Position numbers and translations under genes: made by a program. Positions 11,618 through 26,711 of a stretch of DNA of 64,000 bases are shown one piece after another. The notes below the pieces were generated by a model. The model did no database searches. It saw only the letters and a program-made list of their open reading frames with translations, and was not told the DNA's origin. Origin of the DNA: an uncultured Chitinophagales bacterium (GTDB lineage: Bacteria; Bacteroidota; Bacteroidia; Chitinophagales; JADIYW01); the NCBI GenBank assembly GCA_964472755.1, contig CAYYMF010000005.1, positions 3,386 to 67,385 on the forward strand. The letters run 5' to 3'. Positions within the stretch are counted from its first letter, which is position 1, and every line of letters starts with the position of its first letter.

Positions 11618-11993
11618 CTTTACTAATTGCTGTATTATTCTTTTTATTATGCAATAAAGAACCTAAAATATCTGCTCCATTTTCAACAATTAGCGTATTA
11701 TATTTTATATTTCCTTCAAAAACTGCTGTAGATTTAAAATGAAGATTTTCCTCTGCAATAATATCTCCAATTACTGTTCCTTCTACCGTCAAATCTGAAC
11801 ACTTGATATTACCTTCTACTCTTGAAGTTCTACCAATAACGACTTTAGAAGTACAAACTATATTTCCTTTAACATTGCCATCAATTCGCATATCACTATT
11901 TGCCTGAATATCTCCATTGATATTAGTATTGTCATTAATATGATTAGCTACTAAACTAGAAGCATTATTATTAGAATTTTTTGAATTAAACAT
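11595..11993 (-). CDS. Bactofilin (polymer-forming cytoskeletal protein, CcmA-like)
   Basis: 132 aa. It shows the repetitive beta-helix pattern GN(I/V)xxxxxVxIxxxxxVEGNI typical of bactofilins. Confidence 0.8.
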   Translation of the reverse strand: MFNSKNSNNNASSLVANHINDNTNINGDIQANSDMRIDGNVKGNIVCTSKVVIGRTSRVEGNIKCSDLTVEGTVIGDIIAEENLHFKSTAVFEGNIKYNTLIVENGADILGSLLHNKKNNTAISKDATEKIG

Positions 11994-22947: not shown

Positions 22948-23709
22948 CTATTTCTTAGAGGCTGCTTTTTTAGCAGGTGCTTTAACTGCAGCTTTCTTTG
23001 CTGGAGCTTTAGCGACTGGAGCGACTGCTTTTTTTGCAGGGGCTTTAGGTGCTGCTGTTTTTTTTACTGGAGCTTTAACTACAGCTTTTTTTGTTGCAAC
23101 ATTTTTTTGAACATCTTCAGCAACTTTTTCTACTTTTTTAGCAACTTTAGCAACATTTGCTTTTACTTCTTTCTCTGCTTTAGCAACTGTTTGTTTTACT
23201 TCTTTCTCAATATTTTTCTCAGCTTTCTTTACTTTCGTTTCTACTTCTTTTGCAGTTTTTTCAATTTCTTTTTCAGCTTTTTTCACTTTTGCTTCTACGT
23301 CTTTCGCTGCTTTTTTTATTTCTTTTTCTACAGACTCTGTTGCTTGTTTTGCTTGTTTTGCAACATTATTTGCTGCTTCTTTAGCCTTTTTTTCTCCTGC
23401 ATTTACTTTATCAGTAATTACTTTAAAGAAATCATCTAATCTTTGTTTTGCATCATCCATTACATTTTCAGCTTCTGCCAACAAATCTTCTCTTACTTTA
23501 TCGATTTTATTTACATCAACAATACTTGTAATTCTTGATTTTAATTTTTCACCATACTCTTGTAAGTTTTCTCTTTGTCCTTGTACTTGAACTTGAACAT
23601 CAGAAGAAAAATTTTGAAGATTAATTCTAAACTCTTCAACTTTAATATTAAAATCATTTACTAAAGCATCTAAAGCTTCTCTGAATTTGTCGATTTGGTC
23701 TGTTTTCAT
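22948..23709 (-). CDS. Lys/Ala/Glu-rich protein: helical N-terminal half plus a histone-H1-like PAKKA tail
   Basis: 253 aa with internal EKE(I/V)xKxxK repeats. The C-terminus is AAPKAPAKKAVAPVAKAPAKKAAVKAPAKKAASKK. Confidence 0.6.
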   Translation of the reverse strand: MKTDQIDKFREALDALVNDFNIKVEEFRINLQNFSSDVQVQVQGQRENLQEYGEKLKSRITSIVDVNKIDKVREDLLAEAENVMDDAKQRLDDFFKVITDKVNAGEKKAKEAANNVAKQAKQATESVEKEIKKAAKDVEAKVKKAEKEIEKTAKEVETKVKKAEKNIEKEVKQTVAKAEKEVKANVAKVAKKVEKVAEDVQKNVATKKAVVKAPVKKTAAPKAPAKKAVAPVAKAPAKKAAVKAPAKKAASKK

Positions 23710-23729
23710 TATTGTATATTTTGATAATA

Positions 23730-23737
23730 CAAAAATA
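23730..23737 (-). promoter_or_regulatory. Candidate -7 box TATTTTTG for the Lys/Ala-rich protein gene
   Basis: The reverse complement of caaaaata matches TAnnTTTG. It lies 20 nt upstream of the ATG at 23709. Confidence 0.4.
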
Positions 23738-23847
23738 GTATATGTAGTTTAACAGAGTTTTAGAAATCTTTTAAGAAAAAATCACTAATAATCAATACTA
23801 TGTAAAGTAATTACTAAAACAACACCTTTTCTAACCAATATTAGTGA

Positions 23848-24024
23848 GTTTAACCCGAATTATACAATAGGATTCGTTATGAAAGTGAAAACACCAATAA
23901 AATATAAACTTTTGCGATTGAAACATAGTAACCTCTATGGTAAATGAGCAAAAGTTAGCGTAGCGTTATATTTTGCAGGCATTTTCGATTGCAATAGAAT
24001 ATCTATTGCATAATTCGGGTTTAA
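23848..24024 (+). ncRNA. Candidate structured small RNA, or alternatively a MITE-like element, closed by 20-bp inverted repeats
   Basis: aacccgaattatAcaatag (23852-23870) against ctattgCataattcgggtt (24003-24021) matches 18 of 19 positions. An internal nested hairpin reads cttttgc...catag-taacct-ctatg...gcaaaag. A plus-strand terminator lies 19 nt downstream. The strand assignment is tentative. Confidence 0.3.
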
Positions 24025-24042
24025 TAGCATTTGACAATAATT

Positions 24043-24067
24043 ACAAGTTTATTAAACTTGTTTTTTT
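24043..24067 (+). terminator. Plus-strand intrinsic terminator not assignable to any annotated plus-strand gene
   Basis: Hairpin acaagttt-att-aaacttgt followed by T7 on the plus strand. On the minus strand the hairpin is followed by aattattg, which makes a poor terminator for proS. Confidence 0.55.
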
Positions 24068-24081
24068 AATAGAAGAAATAA

Positions 24082-25563
24082 TTAATATGCTCTTGCAAAT
24101 AACACCCTTTCTTGACTTGGTTTACCAGTTAGCACACACTTTCCATCTTCCTTTTTATTATCTAATGGAATACAACGAATCGTAGCCTTAGTCAATTCTT
24201 TAATTTTCTCTTCAGTTTCTGGAGTGCCGTCCCAATGTGCAGCAATAAAACCACCCTTTTCTTCTAATACTTTTTGAAAAGTATCAAAGTCATCTACTTC
24301 TGTAATATGACTATCTCTAAAACTTTTTGCCTTAGCAAATAAACTATTTTGAATATCATCTAATAAACCAACAATCGTTTCTTGCAAGTTTTCTATAGGA
24401 AAAGTTGATTTTTCTTTGGTATCTCTTCGAGCAATTTCTACAACACCATTTGCTAAATCTCTAGGTCCAATTACCACTCTCAAAGGAATCCCTTTTAATT
24501 CATATTCTGCAAATTTAAATCCAGGGCGTTTGGTTTCATCACTATCTACCAAAGCACGAATTCCATTTTTTGCAAGATTTTGTTTTAATTCATTGGCTTT
24601 ATCAATCATAGATTGTGTTTCTTCAACATTCTTAGATAAAAATGGAATAATAACCACTTGATAAGGTGCAATTTTTGGCGGAATAATCAAGCCTTCATCA
24701 TCAGAATGTGCCATAATTAATGCCCCAATCAAACGTGTTGAAACGCCCCAACTCGTTGCCCAAACATATTCCTCGTTATTCTCTTTATTAACAAATTTTA
24801 CATCAAATGCTTTTGCAAAGTTTTGGCCTAAAAAATGCGATGTTCCTGATTGCAAAGCCTTTCCATCTTGCATTAAAGCCTCAATTGTATAGGTATCTTC
24901 AGCACCTGCAAAACGTTCGTTAGCAGATTTTACACCTTTAATAACTGGAATTGCCATGTATTTTTCTACAAAATCTGCATACACATTAATCATTTGTACA
25001 GTTTCTTCAACTGCTTCTGATTTTGTAGCATGTGCAGTATGTCCTTCTTGCCATAAAAATTCAGCTGTACGTAAAAACAAACGAGTTCGCATTTCCCAAC
25101 GAACTACATTCGCCCATTGATTTACTAAAATTGGCAAATCTCGATATGATTGAATCCATTTTTTATAAGTATTCCAAATAATAGCTTCTGAAGTTGGTCG
25201 CACTACCAATTCTTCTTCTAATTTAGCTTCTGGATCAACGATTAATTTGCCTTTATTTTCAGGATCTGTTTTTAATCTATAATGTGTTACCACTGCACAT
25301 TCTTTGGCAAAACCCTCCGCATTGGTTTCCTCCGCTTCAAACAGACTTTTGGGCACAAACAGTGGAAAATAGGCATTAACATGACCAGTTTCTTTAAATT
25401 TTTTATCCAAAACATCACGCATATTTTCCCAAAGTGTAAATCCATAAGGCTTAATGACCATACAACCACGAACTGCACTATAATCTGCTAATCCCCCTTT
25501 CAATACTAAATCATTATACCACTCACTGTAATTTTCTGCTCTTGATGTAATTCCTTTACTCAT
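24082..25563 (-). CDS. proS: Proline--tRNA ligase (archaeal/eukaryote-like type)
   Basis: 493 aa with class II core motifs, and a length and C-terminal domain typical of the short-type ProRS found in Bacteroidetes. Confidence 0.9.
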
Positions 25564-25706: not shown

Positions 25707-26711
25707 ATGAAAAGATTCATTTTAAATATGTTTTTAGTTTTGCCTTTGGCAATAAATTCAACTTATGCAGATGATGTGTATGATGACTTTACACCAACAG
25801 AGAAAAAAGTAAAGACAGAAAAAACATATTCGCCTTCAAGTTCTGGCAGTTCGAATTATAACAACAATAGTTATCAATATGATAACTACAATAATAACGA
25901 CTATACAAGCAATAACTATAATAACGGAAATAGCAATTATTATGAAGAAGATGGCTATGATTCTTATAATAATAATGGCAATTCAAGATACGCCGATAGA
26001 ATTAGAAGATTTCATAATCCAAACGTACGTTTTAGTGTAAACTTTAATGCTGGCAGACCTTCTTATTATGGTTATAACGGGTACAACTCTTATTATAATG
26101 ATTGGATGTGGAACTCAGGTTCTTCGTTCTATCCAAGTTGGTATGGTGGAAATACGCAGATAATTATTTTAAACAATTATAATCCTTGGAACAGATGGAA
26201 CTCATGGAGTAATCCGTGGCATGGTTTCAATCATTGGAACTATTGGAATAGTTGGAACAGTTGGTCTAATCCTTGGAACAGCTGGGGACCTTATGGATAT
26301 GACAATTATTATGGGAATAATTACTATGGCAACACTTGGAATAATAATTATTACCCATCGGTGAATAAGCCATCTAAACCTGCTCCAACTTACACACCTA
26401 GACCAAATATCTCTACGAATAAACCGAGTTATAACAACAATTCTTATCCTGAAAACAATAATAAGAATAACAACAACGAGAACTATCAGATCAATAAGAA
26501 AACAAATTCAAATTACTCTAAACCACAAAACCAACCTATTGAAAAAGGCGATAATAATAATTACAAACCTCAATATAAAAACAATAACAACGGTGGTGGC
26601 AATTACAAACAAGCTCCATCAATGAATAATAATAACAATAATTACAAAACACCTTCACCATCTAATACAACAACACCTTCAGGTATTAAAATAACTAAAA
26701 CGCCTAAATAA
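25707..26711 (+). CDS. Secreted low-complexity Asn/Tyr/Trp-rich protein
   Basis: 334 aa. The signal peptide is MKRFILNMFLVLPLAINSTYA. It is followed by N/Y tracts, an RIRRFHNP motif, the W-N periodic block NPWNRWNSWSNPWHGFNHWNYWNSWNSWSNPWNSW, and an N/K/P-rich tail. Confidence 0.7.
   Translation: MKRFILNMFLVLPLAINSTYADDVYDDFTPTEKKVKTEKTYSPSSSGSSNYNNNSYQYDNYNNNDYTSNNYNNGNSNYYEEDGYDSYNNNGNSRYADRIRRFHNPNVRFSVNFNAGRPSYYGYNGYNSYYNDWMWNSGSSFYPSWYGGNTQIIILNNYNPWNRWNSWSNPWHGFNHWNYWNSWNSWSNPWNSWGPYGYDNYYGNNYYGNTWNNNYYPSVNKPSKPAPTYTPRPNISTNKPSYNNNSYPENNNKNNNNENYQINKKTNSNYSKPQNQPIEKGDNNNYKPQYKNNNNGGGNYKQAPSMNNNNNNYKTPSPSNTTTPSGIKITKTPK

Follow-up and report, generated by a model that had tools for sequence, protein, structure and literature searches.

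The locus studied here lies in an AT-rich window (30.6% GC; the window is the whole 64-kb stretch of DNA that was analysed) from a Chitinophagales bacterium, the ProS of which finds its best genome match in the activated-sludge MAG HK-STAS-BACT-18 (96% amino-acid identity). Two minus-strand genes, proS and an ORF encoding a Lys/Ala-rich protein, enclose a gap of 372 bp (23710-24081), as the first-pass annotation of this DNA had correctly reported. The features of this gap and its flanking genes are listed in Table 1. The 253-aa Lys/Ala-rich protein has no Pfam match among the precomputed ones; a coiled-coil-like N-terminal half is followed by a histone-H1-like C-terminal tail rich in Lys, Ala and Pro (AKKA/APAKK repeats). 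The protein is 100% identical in many samples, including that of a contig (L093) that carries an empty site (see below) and a proS flank similar to that of HK-STAS-BACT-18 (L005). The 140 nt surrounding the -7 box that precedes its gene are likewise nearly identical in L005 and L093. Upstream of proS, a plus-strand ORF of 334 aa (25707-26711) displays a signal-peptide-like start and an extreme Asn/Tyr/Trp/Ser low complexity (NNNYN, WNSW repeats). It also has no Pfam match among the precomputed ones, but its presence in relatives is indicated by L005, where proS is preceded by an ORF of comparable length.

Table 1. Coordinates of the features of the proS downstream region (positions in the window)
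Feature	Coordinates	Strand	Remarks
Lys/Ala-rich 253-aa ORF	22948-23709	minus	downstream flanking gene
TAnnTTTG-type -7 box, TATTTTTG	23730-23737	minus	precedes the ATG of the Lys/Ala-rich gene by 21 nt
Left TSD copy, TTTAA	23849-23853	no strand	identical to 24020-24024; family consensus TTNAA
166-bp non-coding element, very probably a foldback MITE	23854-24019	no strand	runs CCCGAATTAT...ATAATTCGGG
Left terminal inverted repeat, CCCGAATTATACAATAG	23854-23870	plus	A23864 replaces the consensus G of the family
22-codon mini-ORF	23879-23947	plus	judged spurious
Apical nested hairpin, CTTTTGC...CATAG-TAACCT-CTATG...GCAAAAG	23907-23956	no strand	CATAG/CTATG tip conserved in subfamily A
Subterminal palindrome, TGCAATAGA-ATA-TCTATTGCA	23990-24010	no strand	repeats the inner TIR motif in inverted orientation; conserved in subfamily A
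Right terminal inverted repeat, CCCGAATTATGCAATAG on the minus strand	24003-24019	minus	agrees with the consensus
Right TSD copy, TTTAA	24020-24024	no strand	perfect match to the left copy
Weak AU-rich hairpin followed by A7 on the proS-sense strand (T7 on the plus strand)	24043-24067	minus	20 nt past the proS stop
proS (prolyl-tRNA synthetase)	24082-25563	minus	PF00587, PF03129, PF09180; upstream flanking gene

Within the gap, the first-pass annotation had delimited a unit of 177 bp closed by inverted repeats of 20 bp. These repeats are present, as AACCCGAATTATACAATAG (23852-23870) and its inverse with one mismatch (24003-24021). By chance, 0.04 inverted-repeat matches are expected per window, and two matches were obtained in 0 of 100 shuffles. 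The features of the unit thus stand, while its limits were refined: as the outer TTTAA is a direct repeat of target DNA, it is excluded from the inverted repeat, leaving an element of 166 bp with terminal inverted repeats (TIRs) of 17 bp that are complementary at 16 of their 17 positions. The unit is, moreover, an imperfect palindrome from end to end, with 59-nt arms that display 71% complementarity and a nested 22-nt pair. A single long rod is predicted for both the plus strand (-58.1 kcal/mol, z -5.3) and the minus strand (-59.6 kcal/mol, z -7.3), and on the latter the one TIR mismatch becomes a G-U pair; in the family-wide fold comparison, the rod of the 166-bp element reaches a z of -7.5. 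The limited complementarity of the arms, together with the G-to-A change at the left end, would fit an older and possibly inactive copy.

The closest relative lacks this element. The L005 locus of HK-STAS-BACT-18 is collinear with the window over 7.5 kb, with 90-92% nucleotide identity, and BLAST comparison of the two sequences yields two segments that abut at L005 position 4544, positions 23853-24023 of the window being the sole gap. According to a gapped alignment in which the flanks match on both sides, these 171 nt correspond to the 166-bp element plus one 5-bp copy of the TSD. Such a gap, made up of the element and of one copy of the direct repeat, is the signature of an insertion. The empty site of L005 itself consists of a single diverged copy, CTTAT, which differs from TTTAA at two of five positions and is adjacent to a flank with an indel. 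A second empty site was found in L093, a Logan contig from another sample, and the filled site was recovered in four independent assemblies (L085, L086, L088 and L092), L086 showing a single base difference, in the apical loop.

The same polymorphism could be read in the other direction, as an ancestral structured element that has been precisely deleted in the lineage of L005 and L093. The polarity is indeed indirect: it rests on two lineages that share synteny, as L006 and L007, whose ProS is 86% identical, carry no Lys/Ala-rich gene downstream of proS, are not syntenic and are unusable as outgroups. However, a deletion would have had to remove exactly the element and one copy of its 5-bp direct repeat, and dozens of copies at unrelated sites, as well as transposase-bearing insertion sequences (see below), have these ends and a duplication of this type, which makes this scenario very unlikely.

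The Logan contigs that carry proS or the Lys/Ala-rich gene all stop 24-42 nt inside the element, whichever side they come from (3' ends of L001-L004, 5' ends of L087 and L089-L091, i.e. around positions 23894 and 23997-24005 of the window). The ENA megahit and SPAdes assemblies read through it. These breaks are ambiguous, since they fit a shared repeat and, equally, a loss of coverage at a strong hairpin.

The terminus of the element is widely dispersed. A scan of JGI metagenome contigs with AACCCGAATTATNCAATAG detected it at at least 120 loci from many biomes, the number of chance matches to this pattern being about 15 according to the author's own rough estimate, which is not a tool output. 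Pairing each terminus with the nearest inverse terminus delimited 58-60 complete elements among the matches listed, most of them 160-195 bp long, with CCCG...CGGG ends. Among the matches listed, 38 of 60 complete copies are flanked by a perfect 5-bp TSD with the consensus TTNAA. The 5-bp length of the duplication is set by atypical TSDs, namely ATAAA/ATAAA in L100, ATTAA/ATTAA in L158 and ATAAT/ATAAT in L175. A 3-bp TNA duplication, as in IS5/IS1031- or Harbinger-like elements, is ruled out by these atypical flanks and by ends that begin with CCCG, and the partner described below proved to belong to the IS1380 family. The short elements are intergenic in 58 of 59 cases and occupy convergent, tandem and divergent gene contexts. 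Many copies with different flanks occur within the same samples and three contigs (L175, L199 and L202) harbour two copies each; the 64-kb window contains only one.

Behind their common terminus, these elements carry unrelated interiors and therefore fall into several subfamilies. The window copy belongs to subfamily A, which is characterised by GGATTCGTTATGA..., the CATAG/CTATG apical hairpin and the subterminal AATAGA...TCTATTGCA palindrome. It shows 66-73% identity over its full length with subfamily-A copies from other metagenomes, and the change at position 23864 is its only departure from the TIR consensus (A instead of G).

The size of the copies deserves a few additional remarks. Measured between the CCCG and CGGG ends, copies from several unrelated subfamilies cluster at a narrow mode of about 161-165 bp; the longer copies (186-195 bp) contain additional hairpin insertions in their interior. 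Shorter forms of 64-67 bp (L100, L169 and L196) were also observed, as well as minimal elements of 39-41 bp that consist of two TIRs and a few bases (L119 5434-5472, L205 37-75, L127 267-306 and L163 1027-1067), some of which are flanked by TTNAA duplications (TTTAA/TTTAA in L205). Judging from these minimal sequences, the ends alone may suffice for mobility. Furthermore, some copies adjoin other copies, sit inside them or adjoin full-length insertion sequences (L202 1557-1720 and 1726-2059; L190 around 1430-1445; L220 1314-1351 and 2894), and these tandem and nested arrangements suggest that the TTNAA junctions at the ends of the elements are themselves good targets.

The same ends also delimit larger elements that encode a transposase. 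In L133 (274-1668), an element of 1,395 bp with these ends harbours one ORF of 434 aa that matches NF033539 (IS1380-family transposase; 250.9 bits, cutoff 180), PF13701 (157.5 bits, cutoff 34.7, E 4e-46) and also PF01609. This transposase likewise adjoins the terminus in L148, L129 and L108. Altogether, insertion sequences of 1.4 kb that combine the family ends with a DDE transposase of 432-434 aa are present in L133, L148 and L215-L222. Homologues of this transposase (3,417 proteins, E up to 1e-20) include proteins named IS1380-family transposases by their source in Polaribacter, Salegentibacter, Lunatimonas, Algoriphagus and Thermophagus, all of which are Bacteroidota. Eight IS copies were checked, four in Polaribacter batillariae (CP071795.1) and four in a contig of 6.39 Mb. 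Their ends read CC[CT][GC][AG]ATTAT.CA.TAG and CTA.TG.ATAAT.CGGG, and their 5-bp TTNAA flanks are identical in five of the eight and differ at one position in two others, the left end of L217 being unpaired. One of these copies is flanked by two ORFs that share one MacB/FtsX domain set, an arrangement that would be consistent with a gene split by the insertion sequence.

The IS1380 family, of which IS1247 and ISEcp1 are examples, is described in ISfinder by ends beginning with CC and a direct repeat of 4-5 bp. The window element agrees with these traits through its CCCG...CGGG ends and its 5-bp duplication, and its assignment to the family relies on these two features. A direct repeat of 5 bp is recorded for the family member IS1247 (PMC3281130, Table 2). 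Like the IS1380-family insertion sequences of Bacteroidota (copies L133, L148 and L215-L222), the window element has 17-bp TIRs that begin with CC and a 5-bp TTNAA duplication. Unlike them, it is only 166 bp long, is devoid of any transposase gene, folds back over its whole length and has an interior that is not detectably derived from the IS ends sampled. No transposase homologue was found within the 64-kb window. In some copies of subfamily B, both halves match the first 90 nt or so of the Polaribacter IS. An origin as two inverted IS left ends is not claimed for the window copy, since, beyond the 17-bp ends, its interior shows no significant similarity to those IS ends that were sampled (best z 2.6).

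The element is thus small and non-coding, bears TIRs and a TSD, shows a presence/absence polymorphism and has ends in common with a transposase-bearing element, which are traits by which MITEs are recognised; a further such trait, the presence of multiple dispersed copies, is displayed at the level of the family. There is little doubt that the 166-bp unit is a foldback MITE that uses IS1380-family ends and that has inserted downstream of proS. A MITE with TIRs had been put forward in the first-pass annotation as its second choice, and it is this proposal that the TSDs, the empty site, the dispersed family and the IS1380 partner bear out.

In DDE transposition, both ends of the element are bound, the cuts made in the target are staggered by 5 bp and the repair of the gaps duplicates these 5 bp. 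In the case of the window element, the 17-bp ends would be recognised by a transposase from a clade of IS1380-family DDE enzymes that is widespread in Bacteroidota. This transposase would have acted in trans, being probably provided by a full-length 1.4-kb IS that is, or formerly was, located elsewhere in the genome. After binding both ends, it would have inserted the element at a TTNAA site, and repair of the 5-bp staggered cut would have generated the flanking TTTAA duplication. The element would have come in this way to lie in the spacer that separates the 3' end of proS from the promoter of the Lys/Ala-rich gene, and this insertion would have taken place in the window lineage, after its split from that of HK-STAS-BACT-18. 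An insertion at such a place is likely to be close to neutral, and the element probably has no local function.

Elements of this kind are well known in other bacteria. The Correia elements of Neisseria, the ERIC/IRU sequences of enterobacteria and the RUP elements of Streptococcus pneumoniae are small, non-coding, intergenic sequences with TIRs, target duplications, long hairpins and the ends of resident insertion sequences. The MITEs of Porphyromonas gingivalis (MITEPgRS and BrickBuilt) display the same characteristics, and their ends are of the IS5 type (GAGACC...) (PMC4596501). The window element resembles all these MITEs in its size, its TIRs, its TSD and its foldback structure. It differs from them in its ends, those of the P. 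gingivalis MITEs being of the IS5 type, as well as in its IS1380 partner and its 5-bp TTNAA duplication.

Palindromic intergenic repeats can, however, be mobilised in quite another manner. REPINs, whose mobility depends on a Y1 transposase, are not known to generate target-site duplications. If a RAYT (Y1, IS200/IS605-type) transposase had mobilised the window element as a REP/REPIN-like palindromic doublet, its intergenic location and its long hairpin architecture would be accounted for. Nevertheless, it is flanked by 5-bp TSDs and has the very ends of DDE-type IS1380-family elements, and such an origin is extremely improbable.

A very different reading had been preferred in the first-pass annotation, namely that the plus strand encodes an sRNA of about 180-220 nt that is transcribed independently, is closed by a long helix and has its own terminator, the hairpin and T7 of positions 24043-24067. 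Some of the data are in keeping with it, since the rod is stable on the plus strand (see above), a hairpin and its T7 tract are found 19-23 nt downstream and subfamily A has a somewhat better consensus fold in this orientation (-34.2 kcal/mol forward versus -25.9 kcal/mol reverse). However, no TAnnTTTG box is present on the plus strand or inside the unit (23650-24150), as the first-pass annotation had itself remarked for the plus strand, and the only such box of this region is the minus-strand one at 23737-23730. The comparison with Rfam that it had proposed returned no match at gathering score in the whole window, only chance-level matches to unrelated models in 23650-24150 when E values up to 10 were accepted, and no match in 20 loci with other subfamilies. 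The window copy folds slightly better on the minus strand, and copies of the family are found in every orientation class relative to their neighbour genes. The unit is missing in the closest collinear relative, which keeps the T/A-run region downstream of proS. Dispersed copies with TSDs, an observation that the first-pass annotation had itself regarded as incompatible with an sRNA, do exist, at the level of the family. Such an sRNA is consequently very improbable. The closing helix and the nested hairpins belong to a foldback architecture that is common to the whole family, and they therefore provide no evidence for an sRNA gene.

The rod shape also suggested a 6S-like or another known RNA, as a rod of about 170 nt interrupted by internal loops is predicted here, as in 6S RNA (including 6S-Flavo). 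This candidate was rejected, as neither the window nor the 20 loci provide any Rfam support; unlike 6S RNA, the unit is missing in the sister genome and belongs to a family that is dispersed elsewhere with TSDs.

The hairpin of positions 24043-24061 and the T7 that follows it are present as first described, but the label of clean terminator does not suit them: the stem consists of eight AU-rich pairs (-5.9 kcal/mol, z -1.8), a weakness that also speaks against the sRNA, and a terminator scan did not call it. At the corresponding position, the empty-site locus L005 carries a homologous A-run and a weak hairpin, and AATTATTGTCAAA comes next in both sequences. The presence of this homologue in a genome devoid of the element indicates that the hairpin region belongs to the 3' end of proS and predates the insertion; from its sequence and position, it is most likely the 3'-end or terminator region of proS, located outside the element. 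As for the mini-ORF of 22 codons, the only ORF of the element, it exists and its ATG is conserved, but the frame opened by this ATG ranges in length between 3 and 36 codons among 12 related copies, so that it is ruled out as a coding gene.

If the foldback structure reveals no sRNA gene, it is nevertheless a general property of the family. The median z over 51 elements is -8.6, and all the predicted pairs of the median element span its midpoint. An alignment of 13 subfamily-A sequences (A2), whose consensus rod comprises 50 pairs, shows standard pairs in 92% of the cells, versus about 35% (32-38%) in slid-partner controls. Both-sided changes affect 15 pairs; in an internal helix, helix 4, 8 of 11 pairs show them. 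These compensatory changes could reflect a constraint beyond transposition.

An element that is a MITE by origin may thus have a hairpin that is used by the host or by the element itself. In the RNA, the hairpin would stabilise the 3' end of proS read-through transcripts, serve as an RNase III target or block transcription; in the DNA, the foldback would join the two ends for the transposase. Besides the compensatory changes of subfamily A, this proposal draws on the foldback shape and the length mode of about 161-165 bp that unrelated subfamilies share, and on the position of the window element directly after the weak terminator region of proS. Nevertheless, sub-lineages founded separately as inverted duplications, with arms complementary at birth, would mimic covariation, and the arms of the window copy have decayed to a complementarity of 71%. 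Counts of G-U versus A-C pairs, from which the strand of a putative RNA was sought, show no clear bias either; the consensus is better in the forward orientation whereas the window copy is better on the minus strand, and no RNA strand was retained. A function of the hairpin is therefore unlikely.

A broader proposal can be formulated with the same reserve: the elements might constitute an undescribed superfamily of foldback MITEs that extends across Bacteroidota, with a near-invariant IS1380-type terminus of 17-19 bp, unrelated interiors, a common length of about 165 bp and a rod shape preserved through compensatory substitutions, in which the hairpin itself is under selection. This is unlikely; if it were true, the selected hairpin would be either a DNA structure needed for transposition by this clade of transposases or a structured RNA module, such as a 3'-end stabiliser or a transcription block, that the host tolerates or uses.

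Whatever the role of the hairpin, interpretation of the 166-bp unit as a foldback MITE with IS1380-family ends has several practical consequences. It removes a false sRNA candidate from the annotation, explains an odd intergenic hairpin and accounts for the single large indel between two close Chitinophagales genomes. Furthermore, the signature made up of CCCGAATTATGCAATAG ends and of a 5-bp TTNAA duplication identifies a large complex of MITEs and IS1380-family elements in Bacteroidota metagenomes, and it can be used for repeat masking, for understanding some contig breaks and for tracing recent insertions between strains. The element is ordinary mobile DNA, and the finding has no bearing on any long-standing open question. 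The terminus string was not found in the literature searched, and a large survey of Bacteroidota MITEs does not mention IS1380. Therefore, although this kind of element is well known, the present family appears not to have been specifically described so far.

Other mobile elements were encountered in the vicinity of some copies. On the 6.39-Mb contig, an ORF fragment of the Y1_Tnp type (IS200/IS605-type; L221 2773-3078) adjoins an IS1380-family copy, and this neighbourhood looks like a mobile-element cluster. The metagenome contig L211, which carries a subfamily-A MITE copy, also contains a group II intron domain (11684-11801; RF02003, 53 bits) that has no relation to the finding.
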